This document shows, in pieces, positions 9,447 to 50,092 of a stretch of DNA of 64,000 nt. The stretch lies in the NCBI GenBank assembly GCA_029012365.1, contig JAQXLY010000063.1, positions 5,139 through 69,138 of the forward strand, in the 5' to 3' direction. The translations under genes were made by a program, and so were the position numbers. Below the pieces are notes generated by a model. That model did no database searches and had not been told where the DNA came from. It saw only the letters and a program-made list of their open reading frames with translations. The stretch is from Lachnospiraceae bacterium. Lineage in GTDB: Bacteria; Bacillota; Clostridia; Lachnospirales; Lachnospiraceae. Every line of letters begins with the position of its first letter. Positions within the stretch are counted from its first letter, which is position 1.

Positions 9447-10316
9447 TTATATCGTTAAGCAGATTGTATAGAGAAAGAGCCTGCCTGTGTCATCAGTCGT
9501 GTAGTGATAGGGAAATCCGCATTGGTTCAGTACCCTTTGTGAAGCGGTGTTGTCTGTTTTTACTTTCGCGGAAATGGTTGTATAGCCCAAGTCCTTTGCA
9601 TAAGCAAGGAGTGTGGGAATACACTCTTTTGCATAACCCCGTTTACGATACGGAACATCAATCAGGTATCCGAGAGAAAATGCTCCGTTTTCATCCTCCG
9701 GTAAAGAAAAGCCGGCCCGGCCGATTAAGGTACCGGTATTCTTTTCAAAGACACCCCAAAGTGCAAGGTCAAAAATCGGGTAAATGTTAGAAAGATAGGA
9801 AAGATGCTTTTCCTGTTCCGTTTCATAATCGGCGGGTGTCTCCTCCATAAACGATGCTGTTTCCGGATTGCTGCACATAGGATAGAGGAAAGGAAAATCT
9901 TCTTTTGAAAACTCCCGTATGAGGAGACGCTTTGTAGTCAGAATCTCGGCAGGATAAGACATGGCATGTGCGTGGGTGCGGTGCAGATACGCTGCATCAA
10001 CCGAAGCAAAGCTTTCTAATAAGGCATACGCACGGGAGAGGTTTTCTTTCCCGGAAGCCGGATTGATAAAACCGATACACGGAATACCGGCTGCCTTTGC
10101 GGCTATGGTTCCTTTTTCCGAGTCTGTAATAACCAGACATTCCTCCGGCAAGATACCAAGCTCCTTTGCGGCCGTTAAAAAGAGGTTCGGTGCCGGCTTC
10201 GGATTTGCAAGAGAAGAGGCAGTGGTGAGTTTTAATCCCACAGTCTTCAAATGATAAAAAATCGGTTCCGTACCGGTTATAACTCCGTCTATGTCAATAA
10301 TAACACCTTTTAGCAT
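9447..10316 (-). CDS. fusion protein: reduced (cap-less) HAD-like domain plus a GNAT (RimJ/RimL-type) N-acetyltransferase
   Basis: N-terminus IIDIDGV (HAD motif I), KPAPNLF and ITDSEKGTIAAKAAG (motifs III/IV). C-terminal ~175 aa are GNAT-like (LLIREFSKEDF...RKRGYAKE...NTASQRVLNQCGF). Start set at the ATG at 10316, which has an AAGGAG RBS. Confidence 0.7.
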   Translation of the reverse strand: MLKGVIIDIDGVITGTEPIFYHLKTVGLKLTTASSLANPKPAPNLFLTAAKELGILPEECLVITDSEKGTIAAKAAGIPCIGFINPASGKENLSRAYALLESFASVDAAYLHRTHAHAMSYPAEILTTKRLLIREFSKEDFPFLYPMCSNPETASFMEETPADYETEQEKHLSYLSNIYPIFDLALWGVFEKNTGTLIGRAGFSLPEDENGAFSLGYLIDVPYRKRGYAKECIPTLLAYAKDLGYTTISAKVKTDNTASQRVLNQCGFPYHYTTDDTGRLFLYTICLTI

Positions 10317-10554
10317 AAGCAAGTCTCCTTTGGTTGTTATCAAGAAGAAAACACTGAGTATTCAGCACTTCCCTAAGTTTAGCACATAAGCTATGGTTCG
10401 TAAAGAAAAACAGCAAAAACGAAAAAAAACAAAAAAATGAAAAAAAGACTTGATTATCTTCGCGTTTTGTGTTTTCCTATTAGTATGGATTTTGCTCAAA
10501 CGAATGCGAGCATATTCCGGTTCCATATAAACTGAAAGGCTGGTAGGAAGTATT

Positions 10555-11874
10555 ATGAAAAAAGTTGTAAAGTTTGGCGGAAGTTCTCTGGCAAGCGCAG
10601 AACAGTTTAAGAAGGTAGGAGACATCATACGTGCGGATGAGAGTCGTAAGTATGTCGTGCCGTCTGCACCGGGAAAGCGTCATTCGAAAGATACGAAGGT
10701 AACGGATATGCTGTACGGCTGTTATGCACTGGCAGAGGCAGACAAGGATTTTTCTGCCGAACTGGCTGCTATTGAGGCACGTTATAATGAGATTATTAAT
10801 GGTCTGGGCTTAAAGCTGTCCTTAATGGAGGAATTCGAGGTAATCGAGAAGAACTTTAAGTTAAAAGCCGGCAGTGATTATGCAGCATCCCGCGGTGAGT
10901 ATTTAAACGGCCGTATTATGGCATCTTATCTCGGATATGAGTTCATTGATGCGGCAGAGGTTATTTTCTTCCACAGTGACGGTTCTTTTGATGCGGAAAA
11001 GACGGACACTGTACTTAGTAAGCGTCTTGCAAAGGCGGAGCGTGCGGTAATTCCGGGCTTTTACGGTGCTAAGAAGGGCGGAGAGGTAAAGACCTTTTCC
11101 CGTGGTGGTTCCGATATTACCGGTTCTATTGTTGCAAGAGCAGCAAAGGCGGATTTGTATGAGAACTGGACAGATACTTCCGGGTTCCTTGTAACTGACC
11201 CGCGTATTGTTGAGAACCCGAAGCCGATTACCACAATTACATATAAAGAGCTTCGTGAGCTTTCATACATGGGAGCAAGCGTATTCCATGAGGATGCAAT
11301 CTTCCCGGTAAGAAAGGCCGGTATTCCGATTAATATCCGTAATACCAATGCCCCGGAGGATGAGGGCACCATGATTGTAGAGAGCACTTGCCGTACACCG
11401 GAATACACTATTACTGGCATTGCCGGTAAGAAGGGCTTTGTGGCAATTAATATTGAAAAGGATATGATGAACTCAGAAATCGGTTTTGGCAGAAAGGTTC
11501 TTCAGGCGTTTGAAGAAAATGGTATTTCCTTTGAGCATGTACCGTCAGGTATTGATACTATGACTGTTTTTGTACATCAGCCGGAATTTGAAGGAAAAGA
11601 GCAGAATGTTTTAAGTGCGATTCACCGTCTGGCCGCTCCGGATTCCATAGATTTAGAGGCAAATCTCGCGCTGATTGCTGTCGTGGGTCGCGGAATGAAG
11701 TCTAATCGTGGTACTGCAGCAAGAATTTTTGCAGCACTTGCCCATAACAACATCAACATCAAAATGATTGATCAGGGCTCCAGTGAGCTGAATATTATTA
11801 TCGGTGTACGTAACGAGGACTTTGATCTTGCAATTAAGGCTATCTACGATATTTTTGTATCGTCGGTGCTTTAA
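10555..11874 (+). CDS. aspartate kinase
   Basis: VVKFGGSSLA...GGSDITGS... with C-terminal ACT repeats (ALIAVVGRGM...INIKMIDQGSSELNI), 439 aa. Confidence 0.9.
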   Translation: MKKVVKFGGSSLASAEQFKKVGDIIRADESRKYVVPSAPGKRHSKDTKVTDMLYGCYALAEADKDFSAELAAIEARYNEIINGLGLKLSLMEEFEVIEKNFKLKAGSDYAASRGEYLNGRIMASYLGYEFIDAAEVIFFHSDGSFDAEKTDTVLSKRLAKAERAVIPGFYGAKKGGEVKTFSRGGSDITGSIVARAAKADLYENWTDTSGFLVTDPRIVENPKPITTITYKELRELSYMGASVFHEDAIFPVRKAGIPINIRNTNAPEDEGTMIVESTCRTPEYTITGIAGKKGFVAINIEKDMMNSEIGFGRKVLQAFEENGISFEHVPSGIDTMTVFVHQPEFEGKEQNVLSAIHRLAAPDSIDLEANLALIAVVGRGMKSNRGTAARIFAALAHNNINIKMIDQGSSELNIIIGVRNEDFDLAIKAIYDIFVSSVL

Positions 11875-11916
11875 TACATAAAGTTAAGCATATTAAAGAG
11901 AAAGTGGGGTATTTCA

Positions 11917-12531
11917 ATGAAAATTCAAAACGTAACAGACAAGGCATTTAAGAAGTACGGTAAGGTTGTAACCGGAATCGATTTTTCCGATATGCTTGCA
12001 GTAATGAAGCAGAAGGAAATTCCGGCAGATGTTGTTTATGAGCCGGGTCTTCCGGAGCTTGAGGCATGTGCTTCCGCAAAGGATTTGTGCGAGAGCGTGT
12101 ACGGCGGTATGCCGATTCAGGTAGGTCATTGCAGCGGTAACAATAACAAGTTAAACGCAGTGGAGTATCACAGAGATTCAGAGGTAAATATTTCCGTTGA
12201 CGGTATGATTTTACTTCTCGGCAAGGAAGAGGATATTGAGGATGACTATACCTATGATACCGCTAATATTGAGGCATTTTTAGTACCGGCAGGCGTTGCG
12301 GTAGAGCTTTATGCTACGACACTTCACTATGCTCCTTGTAATTCCGAAAAGAGCGGTTTCCGCGGTATTGTAGTGCTTCCGAAGGGAACGAACTATGAAC
12401 TTACAAAGAAGCCTTCTAAGACCCCGGAGGATAAGCTGATTACCCATGTAAATAAATGGCTTATCGCACACGAGGATGCGAAGATTGCAGGTGCATTTAA
12501 CGGCTTAAAGGGCGAGAATATTACACTGTAA
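11917..12531 (+). CDS. DUF4867-like protein (cupin / ureidoglycolate-lyase-like fold), function unknown
   Basis: 204-aa ORF with a good RBS. The N-terminus MKIQNVTDKAFKKYGKVV resembles DUF4867 family members as I recall them; assignment is from memory only. Confidence 0.5.
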   Translation: MKIQNVTDKAFKKYGKVVTGIDFSDMLAVMKQKEIPADVVYEPGLPELEACASAKDLCESVYGGMPIQVGHCSGNNNKLNAVEYHRDSEVNISVDGMILLLGKEEDIEDDYTYDTANIEAFLVPAGVAVELYATTLHYAPCNSEKSGFRGIVVLPKGTNYELTKKPSKTPEDKLITHVNKWLIAHEDAKIAGAFNGLKGENITL

Positions 12532-41652: not shown

Positions 41653-43740
41653 ATGGCGTACAAGAGTTTTTCAATGGAACTTGCAGGCAGAACTCTGACT
41701 GTAGATATCGGCAGAGTTGCCGCACAGGCAAACGGTGCAGCTTTCATGCATTATGGTGACACAACGGTGCTTTCCACCGCTACGGCTTCCGAGAAGCCGC
41801 GTGATGGGATTGATTTCTTCCCGTTAAGCGTAGAATACGAGGAAAAGTTATACGCAGTCGGTAAGATTCCGGGGGGGTTCAACCGCAGAGAGGGTAAGGC
41901 TTCTGAAAATGCTATCCTTACTTCCCGTGTCATTGATCGTCCGATGCGTCCGTTATTCCCGAAGGATTACAGAAACGATGTAACCTTAAACAACATGGTA
42001 ATGTCCGTAGACCCGGAGTGCAGCCCGGAGTTAACCGCCATGCTCGGTTCCGCAATCGCAGTAGCAATTTCCGATATTCCGTTTGATGGTCCGTGTGCTA
42101 CTACACAGGTCGGACTGATTGACGGAGAGTTTGTTTTTAATCCGAATTCCACACAGAATAAGGTTTCCGACTTGAAGCTTACCGTGGCTTCTACAAGAGA
42201 CAAGGTTATTATGATTGAAGCCGGTGCAAACGAAGTACCGGAGGCAAAGATGATTGAGGCTATTTATGCTGCTCACGAGATTAACCAGCAGGTAATTGCG
42301 TTTATCGATAAAATTGTTGCGGAGTGCGGTAAGGCAAAGCATGAGTATACCAGCTGTGCGGTTCCGGAGGAGTTGTTCGCGGCAATTAAGGAGCTTGTTC
42401 CGCCGGCAGAGATGGAAGAGGCAGTGTTTACCGACGAGAAGCAGAAGCGCGAGGAGAATATCCGTCAGATTACGGCAAGATTGGAAGAGGCTTTTGCGGA
42501 GAACGAAGAGTGGCTTGCAGTGCTCGGAGAAGCAATCTACCAGTATCAGAAGAAGACCGTTCGTAAGATGATTTTGAAGGATCACAAGCGTCCGGACGGC
42601 AGAGAGCTTACCCAGATTCGTAAGCTGGCTGCAGAGGTTGATATTATTCCGCGTGTACACGGTTCTGCTATGTTTACCAGAGGTCAGACACAGATTTGTA
42701 ATGTATGTACGTTAGCTCCGCTTTCCGATGCACAGAAGTTAGATGGACTTGATGAGAACGAAGTTTCCAAGCGTTATATGCACCACTACAATTTCCCGGC
42801 TTACTCTGTAGGTGAGACAAAGGTTTCCAGAGGTCCGGGACGTCGTGAAATCGGTCACGGTGCACTTGCTGAGAGAGCACTTCTTCCGGTACTTCCTCCG
42901 GAGGATGTTTTCCCGTACGCAATCCGTACCGTATCCGAGACCTTTGAGTCCAACGGTTCTACCTCTATGGCTTCTACCTGTGCGTCCTGTATGTCTCTAA
43001 TGGCAGCAGGTGTTCCGATTCGTAAGATGGTTGCGGGTATTTCCTGTGGTCTTGTGACCGGTGAGACCGATGATGATTATGTATTGTTAACTGATATTCA
43101 GGGTCTTGAGGACTTCTTTGGTGATATGGACTTTAAGGTGACCGGTACAGATGCAGGTATTACCGCTATTCAGATGGATATTAAGATTCACGGTCTGACC
43201 AGAGCGATTGTGGAAGGTGCGATTGCAAGATGCCGCGAAGCAAGAATGTACATTATGGAAAATTGCATGAAGCCGGCAATCGCTGAACCGAGAGCTGAGG
43301 TGAGCAAGTATGCACCGAAGATAATCCAGATTCAGATTGACCCGGCAAAGATCGGTGATGTAGTTGGTCAGAGAGGTAAGACTATCAATGCGATTATCGA
43401 AGAGACCGGCGTTAAGATTGATATTACCGATGACGGTGCTGTTTCCATCTGTGGTACCGATCCGGCAGGTATGCAGCGTGCAGTTGACCTGATTCAGATT
43501 ATTGTGACCGATTTTGAGGAAGGTCAGGTACTTGAGGGTAAGGTTGTCAGCATTAAAGAGTTTGGTGCTTTTCTTGAGTTTGCACCGGGCAAGGAGGCAA
43601 TGGTTCACATCTCTAAGATTTCTAAGGAGCGTATCAATCACGTAGAAGATGTTCTTACTCTTGGTGATGTGGTAAAGGCAGTATGTCTCGGTAAGGACAA
43701 GATGGGAAGAATCAGCTTCAGCATTAAGGATGTAAAATAA
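41653..43740 (+). CDS. pnp: polyribonucleotide nucleotidyltransferase (PNPase)
   Basis: Two RNase PH domains, a KH domain (GDVVGQRGKTINAI) and an S1 domain (GKVVSIKEFGAFLEF). Start set at the ATG at 41653 behind AAAGGAG; the 47-codon upstream extension is unsupported. Confidence 0.95.
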   Translation: MAYKSFSMELAGRTLTVDIGRVAAQANGAAFMHYGDTTVLSTATASEKPRDGIDFFPLSVEYEEKLYAVGKIPGGFNRREGKASENAILTSRVIDRPMRPLFPKDYRNDVTLNNMVMSVDPECSPELTAMLGSAIAVAISDIPFDGPCATTQVGLIDGEFVFNPNSTQNKVSDLKLTVASTRDKVIMIEAGANEVPEAKMIEAIYAAHEINQQVIAFIDKIVAECGKAKHEYTSCAVPEELFAAIKELVPPAEMEEAVFTDEKQKREENIRQITARLEEAFAENEEWLAVLGEAIYQYQKKTVRKMILKDHKRPDGRELTQIRKLAAEVDIIPRVHGSAMFTRGQTQICNVCTLAPLSDAQKLDGLDENEVSKRYMHHYNFPAYSVGETKVSRGPGRREIGHGALAERALLPVLPPEDVFPYAIRTVSETFESNGSTSMASTCASCMSLMAAGVPIRKMVAGISCGLVTGETDDDYVLLTDIQGLEDFFGDMDFKVTGTDAGITAIQMDIKIHGLTRAIVEGAIARCREARMYIMENCMKPAIAEPRAEVSKYAPKIIQIQIDPAKIGDVVGQRGKTINAIIEETGVKIDITDDGAVSICGTDPAGMQRAVDLIQIIVTDFEEGQVLEGKVVSIKEFGAFLEFAPGKEAMVHISKISKERINHVEDVLTLGDVVKAVCLGKDKMGRISFSIKDVK

Positions 43741-43939: not shown

Positions 43940-44338
43940 ATGATTTTCTATGATATAACAGAAGAAGATAAAGCATTGATAGAAATTGCATTATCCAAAA
44001 TAGACAAATATTTTGATAGTCAAAAGTATAACCATACAGTAGGAGCAGCAATTAGATGTAAAAACGGCAACATATATTCAGGTGTGAATTGTGATGGGAT
44101 ACATGGTTCTTGCGCGGAATATATCACTATGGGTATTGCAATTTCCGAAGGTGAACGAGATTTCGACACTATTGTAGCGGTCCATAAAGATTTTCCCAAT
44201 AAAGTAATTGCACCATGTGGAAATTGTAGACAAATGCTAATAGAGTATTGCCCAGATATTAAGGTTATTCTTAATGATTATGAAAATAATTTAGTTAAAG
44301 TTGGCATCAAGGACTTATTGCCATTTGCGTGTTTATAG
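43940..44338 (+). CDS. cytidine-deaminase-fold protein, blasticidin-S deaminase (Bsr/BSD)-like
   Basis: 132 aa with HTVGAAIRCKNGNIYSGVN...CAE...DFDTIVAV...PCGNCRQ. Zinc ligands and spacing match what I recall of Bsr/BSD. GGAGGG RBS. Confidence 0.75.
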   Translation: MIFYDITEEDKALIEIALSKIDKYFDSQKYNHTVGAAIRCKNGNIYSGVNCDGIHGSCAEYITMGIAISEGERDFDTIVAVHKDFPNKVIAPCGNCRQMLIEYCPDIKVILNDYENNLVKVGIKDLLPFACL

Positions 44339-44500: not shown

Positions 44501-44743
44501 ATGACAATAGATACAAATACAATGGTTTCGATTACGGAAGCAAATCAGAACTTTTCAAAAGTTGCAAGATTAGTAGATGAGCTCGGCTCAGTTGTTATAC
44601 TTAAGAATAATGCACCAAGATATTTGGTAATCGATTTTAGCAAAGCAGATGAAAGCGCTGTGGCCAAGAATGAAGATGTGCTCGAGATTTCAAGGAGATT
44701 ACTTGCACAGAATAAAGAAGCTTACGAGGTGCTTGCTGAATGA
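44501..44743 (+). CDS. type II toxin-antitoxin system Phd/YefM family antitoxin
   Basis: 80 aa. MVSITEANQNFSKVARLVDELGSVVILKNNAPRYLVI is typical of Phd/YefM. Its ATGA overlaps the downstream doc. Confidence 0.8.
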   Translation: MTIDTNTMVSITEANQNFSKVARLVDELGSVVILKNNAPRYLVIDFSKADESAVAKNEDVLEISRRLLAQNKEAYEVLAE

Positions 44744-44988
44744 AAAGATTGAGTAAAGAGCAAATTTTGATGCTCCATTCACAGCTCATAGAACAAACTG
44801 GCGGAACCCTTGGGGTAAGAGACTTCAATTTGTTGGAGTCGGCTATTGAGACACCGTTTCAAGTGTTTGATGGAGAAGAGTTATATCCAACGATACAAGC
44901 GAAAGGTACGCGTCTTGGCTATGGATTAATAAAAAATCATTGTATGTTGGATGGTAATAAACGAATAGGAACACAGGTGATTATTTGA
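44740..44988 (+). CDS. Doc/Fic family toxin, C-terminally truncated (82 aa; likely inactive remnant)
   Basis: The Doc-type Fic motif HCMLDGNKR is present, but the ORF stops 8 codons later. Doc proteins are normally ~120-135 aa. Confidence 0.7.
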   Translation: MKRLSKEQILMLHSQLIEQTGGTLGVRDFNLLESAIETPFQVFDGEELYPTIQAKGTRLGYGLIKNHCMLDGNKRIGTQVII

Positions 44989-45037
44989 ATTTACAGAATT
45001 GTTAAATTCCAATTTTTCGTGCAAAGGAGATGATGAA

Positions 45038-45733
45038 GTGCAATATACATCAATTGAAATAAATGAAATGTGTAAAAAAGCACTAGAGAGTATCGAAACA
45101 TTTTATCAACAAGATTTTATAAATTATAGAGGAAGAACGGCAGACACCAATCGGTTTTATACAGAAGTTGTTGCAGATTATGTTCTCAATAATATTGATT
45201 CATTTTTAAATAATATTCCCAGAATTACGCGGATGAAAGATTATGACCAGAAACACGATGGTTCATATCGTGAAGGCACAGGAAGAGATGAAGAAATCAT
45301 TGCTATAAAAATGTTCAGAAAAAGCCAGATGGATAATTGCACATATCCGTACATAGGAAAAATAATCGACTATCAGACTCCTTTGAAATTGAAAAGAACT
45401 GATGTGGCAGGTAAGATTGATTTACTATCATATGATGGGAAGGTACTAAGGATTCTAGAATTAAAGAAACCATCGAGTACGGAGTCGATGTTACGGTGTG
45501 TTTTAGAAGGATACACTTATTTAAAAACGGTTGATGAAAAGAAGTTGATTACTGATTTTGGTTTGCCATCAGAGACTATTGTGGAGGCAGCACCTTTTGT
45601 GTTTTGGAAAGCAAATCAGTGGATAGAATGGCAGGAAGATAGACCTGCATTGCATTCTCTTTGTCGAATACTAGGAATAAAACCTTATTTCATCAAAGAA
45701 GAGAATGACAGCTATACAATATTGGAGGGTTAG
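45038..45733 (+). CDS. hypothetical protein with a PD-(D/E)xK-like nuclease motif
   Basis: 231 aa from the GTG at 45038, 8 nt after AAGGAG. The core GKIDLLSYDGKVLRILELKKP fits a D...ExK arrangement, preceded by the acidic EEIIAIK. I recognise no family. Confidence 0.5.
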   Translation: MQYTSIEINEMCKKALESIETFYQQDFINYRGRTADTNRFYTEVVADYVLNNIDSFLNNIPRITRMKDYDQKHDGSYREGTGRDEEIIAIKMFRKSQMDNCTYPYIGKIIDYQTPLKLKRTDVAGKIDLLSYDGKVLRILELKKPSSTESMLRCVLEGYTYLKTVDEKKLITDFGLPSETIVEAAPFVFWKANQWIEWQEDRPALHSLCRILGIKPYFIKEENDSYTILEG

Positions 45734-45735
45734 TG

Positions 45736-46377
45736 ATGGAAAAGAATAAACTTGACAAAGAAATAATTTTAGGTGCTATTTTTGGAATAATTGCTATTAT
45801 AGCAATAATATGTGAGATGTCGCTTGGAGGTTTTTCAAAAGAGGCTATTGCCGGAGGAGTAAAAGATATTTCTGGAACGATAGTAGCTGTTCTTGTATTT
45901 ATCATTGCTGCAAGCGGAATTAGGAAGAAAAATGTAAAAGGGTTTGGTAATGTCTTTCGTACTGAAATGGATAAAGTAATTGCAAAATATGACCCGGCAA
46001 TTGTTGAAAACAAAGATGACAAAAAAGACAGCTTTTATCGTTGTGATATAGCATCAAAATTAGATTGTATTGGTGGTAATGCTTCGGGTGCATATCATTT
46101 GTTCTTTAGAGTAGATAATGAAAAAGAAGTAAAATCTATATCATTTAAGGTTACACAGACAGTATTTGGAGATTTTAAGGGAGAAGTTGCAGAATCAGTT
46201 ATTGCAAAGCTGCTTCTTATATACAGGGATTATATAGAGAAATCTTTTGTCAAAGGTGATGAAGTTGTAGTAGAGTTTAGCAAATCATTAAGTAGTGATG
46301 AGGAGGCTATTCTTTTGGCTAATATAGTTGACTGTGTATTGCTTGTATGCGTTGCAAAATACGGGGCAAAGAAATAA
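45736..46377 (+). CDS. hypothetical membrane protein (2 N-terminal TM helices plus a ~140-aa soluble domain)
   Basis: The ATG lies 3 nt after the upstream stop (a GTG at 45733 overlaps it). GGAGGG RBS sits inside the upstream gene. TM helices IILGAIFGIIAIIAIIC and GTIVAVLVFIIAASGI. Confidence 0.6.
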   Translation: MEKNKLDKEIILGAIFGIIAIIAIICEMSLGGFSKEAIAGGVKDISGTIVAVLVFIIAASGIRKKNVKGFGNVFRTEMDKVIAKYDPAIVENKDDKKDSFYRCDIASKLDCIGGNASGAYHLFFRVDNEKEVKSISFKVTQTVFGDFKGEVAESVIAKLLLIYRDYIEKSFVKGDEVVVEFSKSLSSDEEAILLANIVDCVLLVCVAKYGAKK

Positions 46378-47567
46378 TGAAGATTACTGTTCATAGAGGT
46401 CAAAACCAAATAGGTGGTTCTATTATAGAGGTTTCAACAGAATCAACTAGAGTGGTTTTTGATGTAGGTATTAATTTAGATGAACCAGAATGTGTGAAAA
46501 TTCCGGCTATCGAAGGATTGTTTCAAGGGGATCCGCTATATGATGCCGTTATAATATCACACTATCATTCTGACCATATTGGATTGCTTAACTATCTGCT
46601 TGGTGGAATTCCGATATATATTGGCAAACAAGCATTCTCTGTTGTTCAGGCAGCAAGTAGTTATACCAACCGTGAAATTATGTACGAGCCTCATTTGTTT
46701 GAGGAAAATGAAAGTATTGCGATTGGGGACTTGGCTATTTATCCGTATAGATGCGACCACAGTGCTTTGGATTCCTATATGTTCTTGATAACAGATGGGC
46801 AGAAAACAATTCTTTATACGGGGGATTTTAGAGCAAATGGTAGAATGGACTACCAGGAACTCTTGAATAAGTTACCTGCTGTAGATGCATTGATTGTCGA
46901 AGGAACTACACTAACAAGAGAGACTTATAAAAACAACATTGAGGAAGAAGAACTAGAAAATATTGCAATGTCTAAAATTAGAGATTATCCAGGACCTGTA
47001 TTTTTTATGACATCAGCAATGAATGTGGAGCGTATGGTTACTGCTTATAATATTGCACATAGAGATCATCGTTTGTTTTTGGAAGACCTTTATTCCGCAG
47101 AGATATTAAATGCTGTTGGTTTTAATACAGAAGAACGAAATGATATTAGAGTTTTTATGACTGGCGGGGATATGCAATATGAAATGCTACAAAAATATCC
47201 ATCAAGTAAAATTGGCAAGAAAGAAATATCTAAAACAAGATTTCTTATGTGTATAAGACCATCAATGAAAAATTATATAAGTAAGCTGAATGAATTAATG
47301 TCATTTGAGAATGGTATTTTGTTTTACAGTATGTGGAGAGGATATCAAGAGAAGGATGATATAAAGAATTTTTTAGATTATATGACTTCTTTAGGAGTTA
47401 GGATTCATGTATTACATACGAGTGGGCATGCAGATGTTGATACAATTGATAGGCTTATTAGGAAGGTATCTCCGGGGATGATTATTCCAGTTCATACGGA
47501 GAATCCAGGCTGGTATGAAAAGTATGATATTCCAGTTGAGTTGCATAATAATACGATAAACTTATAA
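46377..47567 (+). CDS. metallo-beta-lactamase fold hydrolase of the beta-CASP (RNase J / CPSF / SNM1-like) type
   Basis: TAATG start/stop overlap. Motifs in order: VFDVG, HYHSDH (HxHxDH), CDHS, TGDF, VEGT, HTSGHA and PVHTE, as in beta-CASP nucleases. Confidence 0.7.
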   Translation: MKITVHRGQNQIGGSIIEVSTESTRVVFDVGINLDEPECVKIPAIEGLFQGDPLYDAVIISHYHSDHIGLLNYLLGGIPIYIGKQAFSVVQAASSYTNREIMYEPHLFEENESIAIGDLAIYPYRCDHSALDSYMFLITDGQKTILYTGDFRANGRMDYQELLNKLPAVDALIVEGTTLTRETYKNNIEEEELENIAMSKIRDYPGPVFFMTSAMNVERMVTAYNIAHRDHRLFLEDLYSAEILNAVGFNTEERNDIRVFMTGGDMQYEMLQKYPSSKIGKKEISKTRFLMCIRPSMKNYISKLNELMSFENGILFYSMWRGYQEKDDIKNFLDYMTSLGVRIHVLHTSGHADVDTIDRLIRKVSPGMIIPVHTENPGWYEKYDIPVELHNNTINL

Positions 47568-47579
47568 AGGGGTGGCGTT

Positions 47580-47981
47580 GTGAAGGGAATGATAATAGTT
47601 GCACTTGTGATTATTGGCGTTATTGTGAGTGCGATATATACCTATTTGTTTCAACAAGTTTATACAGAGCGTTATGGCAGAAGAGGGTTGTCTTATGTTT
47701 TGGCAGCTATCTTGGCGACCGGTATAATGTGGTTCTCACTTGAATATGAAGTGCCAAGTGGATGGGAATATAAAGTGTCTTTAGCAATAATTATAGTATC
47801 GGCTCTGTTAAATCTGATCTGGATAATAAGAGGATTGCTTAAGCCGGATGTTCCTGTTGGAATGAAAATAAATGCTGCAGTTTCACAGATATTGTTGGTA
47901 ATAGGAATTGCAGGAATAATTTTTATAGCACTATTAGCTTTGTATGCTTTTGGTGGTGGGGGCAAGAGGAGGAAACGATAG
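47580..47981 (+). CDS. hypothetical small membrane protein (4 TM helices, basic GGGGKRRKR tail)
   Basis: GTG start 12 nt after the MBL gene's stop, with AAGGGGTGG upstream. Four clear hydrophobic segments. Confidence 0.6.
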   Translation: MKGMIIVALVIIGVIVSAIYTYLFQQVYTERYGRRGLSYVLAAILATGIMWFSLEYEVPSGWEYKVSLAIIIVSALLNLIWIIRGLLKPDVPVGMKINAAVSQILLVIGIAGIIFIALLALYAFGGGGKRRKR

Positions 47982-48088
47982 TGCTAGCCCGTTAAATTGT
48001 TATTTTATCGTTACAAAGGCAACAACAAATTTCAGTAAGCCGGAGAGTTTAACTGAGAGATGAATTTGAATTTGTATTGGAGAATCAG

Positions 48089-48619
48089 ATGAATAAATAT
48101 GTTGCGCTTTTAAGAGGAATTAATATCAGCGGAAAAAATAGAATAGATATGTCGGAATTGAAATCAGAACTTGAGGCAACAGGTTTTAGGGAGGTATCTG
48201 CTTATTTGAATAGCGGAAACATCGTGTTTGTTTCTGAAATGACTAATTGTAAACCGGTAATAGAGAACATTATTTTGCAAAAATTCAAGTTGGATATTCC
48301 TGTTTATCTAATTGAAATGGAAGAACTAAAAGATATACTGGCGCATTCGCCGATATGGTGGGATTCCGGGAGCAAAGATAAATACGATAATCTGATTTTT
48401 ATTTTGTCTTCCGATTCTGCCGAAGATATATCTGCTATTATCGGAAATCCATCTGACAATCTTGAAAGGGTTGAAATATACAAAAGTGTTATTTTCTGGA
48501 CATTTGAACGAAGTACATACCAAAAGTGTCACTGGTGGAAGAAGACTGCTGAAAACGGTATTGCTGAAAGACTCACTATTAGAACGGCAAATACCGTTAA
48601 GAAGATATTACAAAGATAA
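48089..48619 (+). CDS. DUF1697 domain-containing protein
   Basis: MNKYVALLRGINISGKNRIDMSELKSELEATGFREVSAYLNSGNIVF is typical of DUF1697. ATG at 48089 behind GGAGAA. Confidence 0.8.
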   Translation: MNKYVALLRGINISGKNRIDMSELKSELEATGFREVSAYLNSGNIVFVSEMTNCKPVIENIILQKFKLDIPVYLIEMEELKDILAHSPIWWDSGSKDKYDNLIFILSSDSAEDISAIIGNPSDNLERVEIYKSVIFWTFERSTYQKCHWWKKTAENGIAERLTIRTANTVKKILQR

Positions 48620-48709: not shown

Positions 48710-50092
48710 ATGGATCGAATTGAGTTAATCAGTCTACCCAACGGCATCCGGGTGGTATTAGAGCCTATGCCGTATGTAAAAACGGCAGCGTTTGGCGTTT
48801 TTGTAGGTGTCGGCTCCGTTTGTGAGACAAAAGAAAATAACGGTATCTCTCATATGATTGAACATATGCTTTTTAAGGGGACGGAAGACAGGAGTGCCAA
48901 GGAACTGGCAGATATTACGGCAAGGCTCGGTGATACGGTAAATGCCTATACCGGCAAGGAGTATACTGCATATTACGGAGTGACTATTGCTGAGGAACTG
49001 CCACGACTTATCGAAGTTCTTGCCGATATGTTGCAGCATTCCGTGTTTGACAGTAGAGCTCTTTCCAAGGAAAAGGGAGTTATCTGCGAAGAGATTGATA
49101 TGTATAATAATTCTCCGGATGATCTGGTTCACGAACTGGCACAGAAACGGGCATGGCAGGGGCATCCGCTCAGCTTTCAGATTTCCGGTACAAAGGGCGT
49201 GGTACGGGCAATGACAAGGGAAAAGATTCTGACCTACTACCGGAAGGAATACCGGCCGGAGCGGATGGTGCTTTCCGTCGCGGGAGCGTTTGATAAAAAC
49301 GAGATAATGGAGAGTCTGGAAAAGACGTTCTGCCCGGCAGGACAAAGTGTTTCGGCAAGCTTGAAAAAAGAAGGTCTTATGCCGGATGGCCGCTATCAAA
49401 AGTATTACGGCAATCAGGCAAAGAAGAGAGCCGGGCAGGAGGGTGTGCCGGTACAGGACAGGCAGCCGGCAGAGTATACGAGAAGCTTTTCCAAATCCGT
49501 GCAGGATACATCCCAGCTCCACATGAATCTGGTATTTCCGGGGATTTCCTATATGGATGAAAAACGGCATATAGCTACTGTATTCCAGTCGATATTCGGT
49601 GGCAGCAACAATTCTTTATTGTTTCAAAAGATTCGTGAGGAAGAAGGACTTGCTTACGCAGTATATTCCTATGGATGTCCGTATGCAAGGGAAGGACTGG
49701 TACATATTGATGCGGTAAGTGCTCCGAACCAGGCAGAAGCAGTATTTGACTACACTATGGAGGTATGTGAAAGTCTTCGGGAAACGGTAGTTTCGGAAGA
49801 AACTCTGGCAACTCATAAGGCGCTGATTCGTACCGAAGCGATTTTGTCAAAGGAAAGTGTGCAAAGCCGTATGGAAGGCAACGGAAGAAGCGTGCTTCTT
49901 CGCGGCAGGGTGATTCCTCAGGAGGAAGAACTGGTACGTATCGAGGCGGTAACGGCAGAGGAGGTAAAACAGTTTGCAAGACAGGTGCTTTGCACAGAAA
50001 AAATGAGTATTTGCCTGGTAGGTGAGATGGGAAGTGCCGGAAGGAGACTTCGGAGGAAGTTTGAACGTCTGGGAGGAAGAGCTATAAAATAA
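48710..50092 (+). CDS. M16 family (pitrilysin/insulinase-like) metallopeptidase
   Basis: Inverted zincin motif HMIEHMLFKGT, downstream E in VICEEI, two-domain length of 460 aa. Confidence 0.85.
   Translation: MDRIELISLPNGIRVVLEPMPYVKTAAFGVFVGVGSVCETKENNGISHMIEHMLFKGTEDRSAKELADITARLGDTVNAYTGKEYTAYYGVTIAEELPRLIEVLADMLQHSVFDSRALSKEKGVICEEIDMYNNSPDDLVHELAQKRAWQGHPLSFQISGTKGVVRAMTREKILTYYRKEYRPERMVLSVAGAFDKNEIMESLEKTFCPAGQSVSASLKKEGLMPDGRYQKYYGNQAKKRAGQEGVPVQDRQPAEYTRSFSKSVQDTSQLHMNLVFPGISYMDEKRHIATVFQSIFGGSNNSLLFQKIREEEGLAYAVYSYGCPYAREGLVHIDAVSAPNQAEAVFDYTMEVCESLRETVVSEETLATHKALIRTEAILSKESVQSRMEGNGRSVLLRGRVIPQEEELVRIEAVTAEEVKQFARQVLCTEKMSICLVGEMGSAGRRLRRKFERLGGRAIK

Follow-up and report, generated by a model that had tools for sequence, protein, structure and literature searches.

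A mobile, modular cassette of nuclease and membrane-protein genes in Lachnospiraceae as a candidate defence system

Four coupled genes and their predicted products

Four tightly packed genes on the forward strand, here called g1 to g4, occupy positions 45038-47981 of the 64-kb stretch of Lachnospiraceae DNA that was analysed as a whole (contig JAQXLY010000063.1; hereafter the window), and encode in this order a predicted PD-(D/E)xK-like nuclease, a two-transmembrane (two-TM) protein, a beta-CASP metallo-beta-lactamase (MBL) and a four-TM protein (Table 1). The original prediction, made from the letters of the window, had described them as one translationally coupled unit inside a strongly AT-rich island, adjoining a Phd/Doc toxin-antitoxin remnant, and had suggested an undescribed defence or abortive-infection system. 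By checking the open reading frame (ORF) list against the sequence, we found the four coupled same-strand genes and every junction coordinate proposed for them to be correct. A ribosome-binding site (AAAGGAG, 45023-45029) precedes g1, an alternative GTG start of g2 at 45733 overlaps the g1 stop, g2 and g3 are joined by a TAATG overlap at 46375-46379, and the 12-nt gap between g3 and g4 contains AAGGGGTGG ahead of the g4 GTG. A promoter scan of the cassette gave fewer matches than were obtained with shuffled sequence, and none of them was a convincing cassette promoter. Proteins identical to these four are deposited as MDD6037006-09, from a Lachnospiraceae metagenome-assembled genome (MAG), where their NCBI names are hypothetical, hypothetical, MBL fold metallo-hydrolase and hypothetical, respectively.

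The AT-richness of the surroundings was borne out by base composition: the island, at ~43.9-48.65 kb, has a GC content of ~35% (0.34-0.375 across 44-49 kb) compared with ~0.41-0.49 in the flanks, and is bounded by pnp (ending at 43740) and an M16 peptidase gene (48710-50092). Four other genes lie within it, namely a cytidine-deaminase-like gene, Phd, a truncated Doc/Fic gene and a DUF1697 gene, so that the Phd/Doc remnant does adjoin the cassette. The same order of cassette genes was found in dozens of species, an arrangement far beyond chance.

Table 1. Coordinates of the cassette features and of the neighbouring island genes in the window
Feature	Position	Strand	Description
g1	45038..45733	+	GTG start 45038, stop TAG 45731-45733; 231 aa; predicted PD-(D/E)xK-like nuclease
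g2	45736..46377	+	ATG start 45736, stop TAA 46375-46377; 213 aa; two-TM protein
g3	46377..47567	+	ATG start 46377, stop TAA 47565-47567; 396 aa; beta-CASP metallo-beta-lactamase
g4	47580..47981	+	GTG start 47580; 133 aa; four-TM protein
Cassette left end	44982..45037	+	Short conserved leader with AAAGGAG; from blastn breakpoints and junction alignment
Cassette right end	47982..48008	+	From the end of blastn homology and junction alignment
Phd	44501-44743		Neighbouring gene
doc (Fic/Doc)	44740..44988	+	82 aa, truncated; Fic PF02661 4.3e-14, profile positions 2-86 of 93
Cytidine-deaminase-like gene	43940-44338		PRK06848 2.4e-30, below its cut-off
DUF1697 gene	48077-48619		In the AT-rich island

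To evaluate the nuclease signature of g1, 37 homologues were aligned, and E85, E86, D128 (in GKIDLL), E141-L-K143 (in ILELKK) and E157...Y161 were found invariant, which includes the D...ExK residues that had been recognized in the window alone. The AlphaFold2 (AF2) model, with a predicted local distance difference test score (pLDDT) of 94, places D128 and the ExK motif on consecutive predicted strands (126-132 and 136-142), so that both the strand-2 acidic residue and the strand-3 (D/E)xK of the PD-(D/E)xK superfamily are present. Foldseek matches of this model were weak (best E values of 0.03 in PDB and 0.0017 in BFVD, with TM-scores of ~0.3), and the lists from both databases were mostly made up of PD-(D/E)xK proteins, among them Can2, BsmI, NucS, HincII, McrC, phage exonucleases and restriction enzymes. 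Searches with hidden Markov models (HMMs) gave weak matches of g1 to the PADLOC Cas4 model (E value 0.0055, and 0.0019 for a relative) and to NERD (5.8e-4), with no Pfam or NCBIfam family and no significant match to a curated model, and a PDB profile search with g1 returned nothing. Its conserved N-terminal helical domain of ~100 residues is distinct from Cas4, RecB-like and NERD nucleases. It is thus well supported, by residue conservation and the structural model, that g1 is a predicted PD-(D/E)xK-like nuclease with an intact active site, standing outside any named family.

For g3, Lactamase_B_2 (4.8e-12), Lactamase_B and RMMBL were matched above the Pfam cut-offs. Across 21 homologues, distant two-gene variants included, D29, H62xH64xD66H67, H128, D150, E175, H351 and H373 were invariant; the HxHxDH and beta-CASP motifs reported for the window thus belong to a full set comprising MBL motifs 1-4 and beta-CASP motifs A, B and C, with a histidine at motif C. 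This histidine is typical of RNA-acting beta-CASP members such as RNase J and CPSF73, the corresponding residue in Artemis and SNM1 being valine, and RNase J, CPSF73 and SNM1 are 5'-phosphate-dependent 5'-to-3' exo- and endonucleases. The histidine motif C together with the RMMBL domain would therefore favour RNA or single-stranded substrates for g3. An identity as RNase J proper was considered and rejected: g3 scored 72.9 bits against TIGR00649 (RNase J; cut-off 400), matching model positions 3-247 of 546, and 67.8 bits against RnjA (cut-off 820), which is far below the family cut-offs, and this 396-aa protein is without the RNase J domain architecture. By phmmer, the nearest solved structure was EF2904 of Enterococcus faecalis (PDB 2az4; 9.5e-16), with RNase J1 at 7.6e-12; we know of no function for EF2904.

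Conserved core and exchangeable components

Relatives of the cassette were collected by a pattern-based scan of one genome per GTDB species (185,579 genomes), the counts from which are lower bounds. In total, 154 relatives were obtained and 80 loci were kept (loci are cited below by L numbers). Both g1 and g3 have >2,000 homologues at 90% clustering, and the g1 profile covers 1,415 representative clusters at 50% identity. The hosts are mostly Oscillospiraceae, Acutalibacteraceae, Lachnospiraceae and other Clostridia, with single cases in Selenomonadaceae, Dialister, Bulleidia, Fusobacterium and a bin labelled Bacteroides; the system is found mainly in gut and rumen Firmicutes.

Gene layouts were then counted by local HMM searches in the 75 loci with enough downstream sequence. 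The order g1-g2-MBL was the most frequent (46 loci), followed by g1 and the MBL gene directly adjacent (11 loci) or separated by another gene (2 loci). A different protein, here called alt3, took the third position in the remaining nuclease-bearing loci, as g1-g2-alt3 in seven, g1-alt3 in one and a g1::alt3 fusion in three, while three loci had g1-g2 with the third gene absent and two had g1 alone. Consequently, a nuclease partner on the same strand, adjacent to g1 or fused with it, was present in 70 of these 75 loci (MBL in 59, alt3 in 11), in agreement with the co-occurrence of the nuclease genes that would be expected of a genuine system. The proposal of one functional four-gene unit stood in part: the nuclease genes are linked across genomes, while g2 is replaceable and g4 is confined to one subclade. 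The conserved core is thus g1 plus a nuclease partner and not an obligate four-gene unit, with g1 as the signature, constant component and the partner nuclease as the interchangeable one.

The alt3 protein has 300 aa and an ANLDGF...FVEAKC (D..EAK) signature, that of a different restriction-type nuclease; it received no family assignment and no PADLOC match. An iterated g1 HMM had reported a 300-aa g1 paralogue in the third position, and this candidate was rejected, as it was actually the unrelated alt3 pulled in via the g1::alt3 fusions. Natural fusions found in the representative library joined g1 to g2 (P0327, P0328), to g3 (P0401) and to alt3 (P0326), and g1 was also fused to REase-ARP/PDDEXK_13 nucleases (P0338, P0400); a literature search for REase-ARP found nothing. 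When neighbours that are otherwise separate genes occur fused, this is a standard sign that their products are coupled physically and functionally, and these fusions thus indicate that the parts work together.

Additional genes were observed around the core. In some loci, zinc-ribbon membrane proteins or HTH_11 proteins are encoded between g2 and g3. Directly upstream of g1 in ~22 loci (among them L017, L020, L023, L024, L028, L035, L036, L039, L041, L042, L051, L053, L057, L062, L065, L074, L078 and L081) lies a conserved 128-aa gene without a family (MRKYIEENFSEIYTHF...SVSMNEYFKVRTATYF), the stop of which often touches the g1 start; the window does not contain this gene, which may be a further accessory component. 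In four loci (L011, L022, L029 and L041), g1, g2 or g3 is split into two ORFs, and these copies appear to be frameshifted and decaying.

The second gene behaved very differently from the two nuclease genes. Hydropathy gave two N-terminal helices for g2, as had been predicted, forming a membrane hairpin with conserved E27, K43, D44 and T48, and the C-terminal part is an alpha/beta domain predicted to be cytoplasmic (AF2 pLDDT 81). No Pfam family was assigned, and neither Foldseek against PDB nor a PDB sequence-profile search gave relatives above noise. Among 903 pairs of complete systems, the median pairwise identity was 56% for g1, 50% for g3 and 40% for the g2 hairpin, compared with 17% for the g2 C-terminal domain. 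Even in pairs with g1 and g3 90-98% identical, the g2 C-terminal domain was often only 12-20% identical, such as in L013/L019 (g1 96%, g3 98%, g2 domain 16%) and L015/L016 (94%, 96% and 12%, respectively), and DNA-level homology between near-identical systems drops out across g2. The window itself provides an example: compared with L087, g1, g3 and g4 are 97.8%, 97.7% and 99.2% identical, while g2 is alignable over its 61 N-terminal residues only, at 41%. This demonstrates a far higher rate of evolution and recombination for g2 than for the two nuclease genes, with g2 alleles swapped between systems in which g1 and g3 are 93-98% identical. In three loci, a KAP-family P-loop NTPase replaces g2 (L058, 5864-7633; L107, 5226-6959; L108, 5162-6895), positioned between g1 and the MBL gene or, in L107 and L108, upstream and overlapping the g1 start, which points to alternative sensor or adaptor modules.

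For g4, the four helices proposed earlier were likewise recovered by hydropathy, together with a basic C-terminal tail. No family was matched in Pfam, PADLOC, the curated subfamily models or PHROGs, the PHROGs matches being uninformative. A g4 gene was found downstream of g3 in L002-4, L007, L038, L039, L064 (as a fragment), L087-96 and L107-113, and once upstream of g1 (L067). Among the loci of GTDB species, ~7 have it after g3, and it is also present in the most closely related metagenomic loci; most other loci are without it. Therefore, g4 is an accessory of one subclade. Compared with the window, L097 has g1 98.6% and g2 100% identical, with the last third of g3 different and g4 missing, which suggests joint transfer of g4 and the C-terminal part of g3.

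Mobility and genomic settings

The ends of the shared unit were located by blastn comparison of the window with near-identical loci. The left boundary fell at 44982 (L097, L099, L101) or 45002 (L087-92), and on the right the 98.4% homology to L087-92 stopped at 48008; junction alignment showed that the shared sequence reaches only ~35 nt upstream of the g1 start codon and 18-27 nt beyond the stop of g4. The region is thus a promoter-less, horizontally mobile cassette of ~3 kb (~44982-48008). An 8-mer, GTTAAATT, lies in direct orientation at 45001-45008 and 47991-47998, just inside both ends; it has four copies in the 64-kb window, overall no more than chance, and was picked post hoc, so the pair may mark a site of recombination or be coincidental.

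At 95-98% DNA identity, the cassette was found in at least four other unrelated contexts. In L087-96 it is flanked by an MmeI-type restriction-modification gene with PilZ and, at the opposite end, by an integrase/Rep_trans/FtsK integrative element, AbiEii being close by; in L099 it follows McrBC and AbiH; in L101 it follows an HNH gene; and in L097 it lies between a uracil-5 methyltransferase gene and arsC. More distant copies have as neighbours AAA_21/RloB and Thoeris; AAA_21/RloB with AbiTii, WYL, MNT-HEPN and a serine recombinase; HipA/Fic/SNF2/KAP; or KAP, a helicase and patatin. In one MAG, two copies that have diverged from each other are present. Transfer also reaches across bacterial classes, to which the hosts of L082 (Dialister) and L085 (Oscillospiraceae) separately belong: the nucleotide identity of these loci, 90-92%, is restricted to g1 and the MBL gene (~9770-12200), and in L085 a zinc-ribbon membrane gene and an HTH_11 gene are inserted between the two.

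A survey of the nearest neighbours, for which the two flanking genes at either end were taken in roughly half of the loci (148 proteins) and which gave aggregated, uncontrolled counts, recorded recombinases, integrases, HTH genes, nucleotidyltransferases, two Mokosh MkoA, PDC candidates and a recurrent uracil-5 methyltransferase. The last, a tRNA/rRNA uracil-5-methyltransferase gene, lies directly upstream in ~9 loci from several MAG lineages (L001, L006, L009, L010, L011, L022, L025, L097 and L101), and this adjacency could reflect an insertion hotspot, shared ancestry or a functional RNA link. Homologues therefore occupy variable settings, often rich in defence or mobile-element genes, as anticipated, and no single housekeeping context was found. 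No homologue was detected in IMG/VR or GenBank phages, by the scan or by tblastn with g1, and tblastn of plasmids with g1 gave one weak partial match only, to a Butyrivibrio megaplasmid; this virtual absence from phage and plasmid collections fits a host-side gene.

Next to the cassette, the truncated doc stops right after its HxxxDGNKR motif, the DOC_P1 model matching it over positions 2-79 of 122. Its last codons lie inside the left homology boundary, and doc was therefore apparently truncated when the cassette arrived, by which the Phd/Doc toxin was apparently inactivated. Phd/Doc was rejected as a part of the cassette, since no phd/doc homologue adjoins the system in 85 other loci and the Doc of the window is truncated. 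The cytidine-deaminase-like and DUF1697 genes were likewise rejected as components, as neither recurs in other loci, which suggests that the island arose by several independent insertions between pnp and the gene for the M16 peptidase. When this peptidase was looked up exactly for an island-free pnp-peptidase junction, one contig was returned, which ends at DUF1697.

Candidate function and relation to known systems

Based on its context, modularity and mobility, we infer a role in defence or abortive infection, and consider it moderately probable that the cassette is an unnamed, modular multi-nuclease system directed against phages or mobile elements. This reading follows from a conserved operon with interchangeable effector nucleases and a fast-evolving, swapped subunit, and from tight mobile boundaries, patchy distribution, decaying copies and frequent defence or mobile-element neighbours. 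Traits of the defence class are accordingly present, namely a conserved operon, patchy distribution, horizontal mobility and known defence genes nearby, the last given as occurrences with no enrichment statistic. Several observations weigh on the other side. The fold assignment of g1 combines weak Foldseek scores with a motif; the surveyed neighbours are heterogeneous, with a modest number of recognizable defence genes among the 148 proteins, counted without a matched control; several copies lie among ordinary metabolic genes (L001, L097, L109); and the adjacency to the uracil-5-methyltransferase gene could be a sign of a housekeeping connection with RNA and not of an insertion hotspot. In addition, complex formation, membrane tethering, the substrate and the order of action are elements that we infer.

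In the mechanism that we propose for such a defence system, the g2 hairpin would anchor a complex of g1, g2 and g3 to the inner side of the membrane. Specificity would be set by the hypervariable domain of g2, which is predicted to be cytoplasmic and which would either recognize an invader-derived cue or be the target of inhibition by the invader. On activation, g1 would cut endonucleolytically and leave 5'-phosphate ends, from which g3 would degrade in the 5'-to-3' direction, probably RNA or single-stranded nucleic acid, a step suggested by its relatives RNase J, CPSF73 and SNM1. The outcome would be destruction of the invader nucleic acid or abortive infection. More tentatively, and with considerable doubt, the cassette could represent a new class of immune system of gut Firmicutes, in which g2, hypervariable, anchored in the membrane and with alleles exchanged as cassettes, would be the specificity receptor and the conserved g1 an adaptor-nuclease that licenses interchangeable effectors, one of them a beta-CASP enzyme of the RNase J type outside CRISPR type VII.

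If the defence role is true, an unnamed system would be added to the immune repertoire of gut and rumen Clostridia, from which, to our knowledge, few defence systems have been tested and the phage-host biology of which bears on microbiome engineering. Near-identical nucleases paired with unrelated g2 alleles would then give a clean handle on how specificity is encoded, to which the natural variants that exchange the effector nuclease or fuse the parts would add. A function would also be provided for the short, EF2904-like beta-CASP branch and for the g1 family, whose ~1,400 representative clusters are without a Pfam model.

Among the alternatives, a selfish stabilization or inter-element competition module, with a toxin-like or exclusion function benefiting the carrier island or element, such as post-segregational killing or exclusion of rival elements, and not protecting the host from phages, appears unlikely to us. 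The 98%-identical copy that sits as cargo beside the integrase/Rep_trans/FtsK element would fit it, as would the frequent toxin-antitoxin neighbours (Phd/Doc in the window; HipA/Fic, MNT-HEPN and MazE-HTH elsewhere) and the movement of the cassette as a unit without a recombinase of its own. However, none of the encoded proteins looks like an antitoxin or an immunity factor varying in step with a toxin; the variation is found in g2, both nucleases being conserved, which is the opposite of toxin/immunity co-variation, and many copies lie far from any recognizable mobile-element gene. The border between such a module and a defence system is in any case blurred.

A little less likely again is that the system acts as proposed and has already been named in a newer resource, such as the current DefenseFinder models or a screen from 2024-2026. 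The PADLOC-DB release that we scanned with the component proteins, PDC candidates included, was v2.0.0 (2023), in which g2, g3, g4 and alt3 had no match and g1 only the weak Cas4 one, and in the legend to Figure 8 of the CoCoNuT paper (PMC11090510) the ancillary genes of RtcR-CoCoNuT defence superoperons include "MBL fold" and "4 TM domain" ones, for which that legend names no system; to judge from the legend, these may be a related gene pair, seen but unnamed. Against this stand full-text literature searches on MBL, beta-CASP, RNase J-like and PDDEXK proteins in defence, which found unrelated systems only, the uninformative NCBI names, and g1, g2 and g4 being without a Pfam family. No paper describing the system was found in a literature search whose coverage was without most subscription journals, and the absence of any named system with this gene combination, as originally supposed, is consistent with both searches.

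Housekeeping or stress-related nucleic-acid processing, in which an RNase J-like beta-CASP enzyme and an endonuclease would serve RNA decay, quality control or DNA repair and membrane localization would serve normal physiology, is highly improbable: although g3 is nearest to RNase J/CPSF-type RNA enzymes with its RMMBL domain and motif C histidine, and ~9 loci directly follow the uracil-5 RNA methyltransferase gene with some contexts being purely metabolic, the distribution is patchy (154 matches in the 185,579 species genomes, a lower bound), copies that are nearly identical are found at unrelated positions and in different bacterial classes, g1 is paired with different nucleases and g2 is hypervariable, in the window the system is part of an AT-rich island and interrupts doc, and some copies appear to be frameshifted and decaying.

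Compared with known enzymes, g1 shares the E...D...ExK...ExxxY pattern on a predicted alpha/beta core with Cas4, RecB-like and NERD nucleases, but the iron-sulfur cysteine cluster typical of Cas4 is not present. With RNase J, g3 has in common the MBL motif set, beta-CASP motifs A-C with the histidine, and the RMMBL C-terminal motif; however, RNase J has ~555 aa with a C-terminal domain that the shorter g3 does not possess, and a further difference is that the gene for g3 belongs to a mobile operon together with that of a PD-(D/E)xK partner.

At the level of systems, MBL-fold proteins in defence were found only in other settings, namely type VII CRISPR Cas14, HamMAB and MBL-protease pairs. All of these use an MBL-fold effector, as the cassette would with g3, but their partners are a protease plus helicase or a Cascade complex, none of which lies beside g3. 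None of these systems is significantly similar to the cassette, and g3 scored 25 bits against the Cas14 model (cut-off 800). A further likeness, by analogy, is to Shield, in which ShdA combines a TM helix with an RmuC-like nuclease, so that nuclease activity is tied to a membrane protein in defence islands; no sequence or fold similarity to Shield was detected, and in the cassette the membrane part is separate, hypervariable and accompanied by two predicted nucleases. Kiwa and Zorya are further membrane-linked nuclease defence systems, which the cassette may resemble in the same analogous way.

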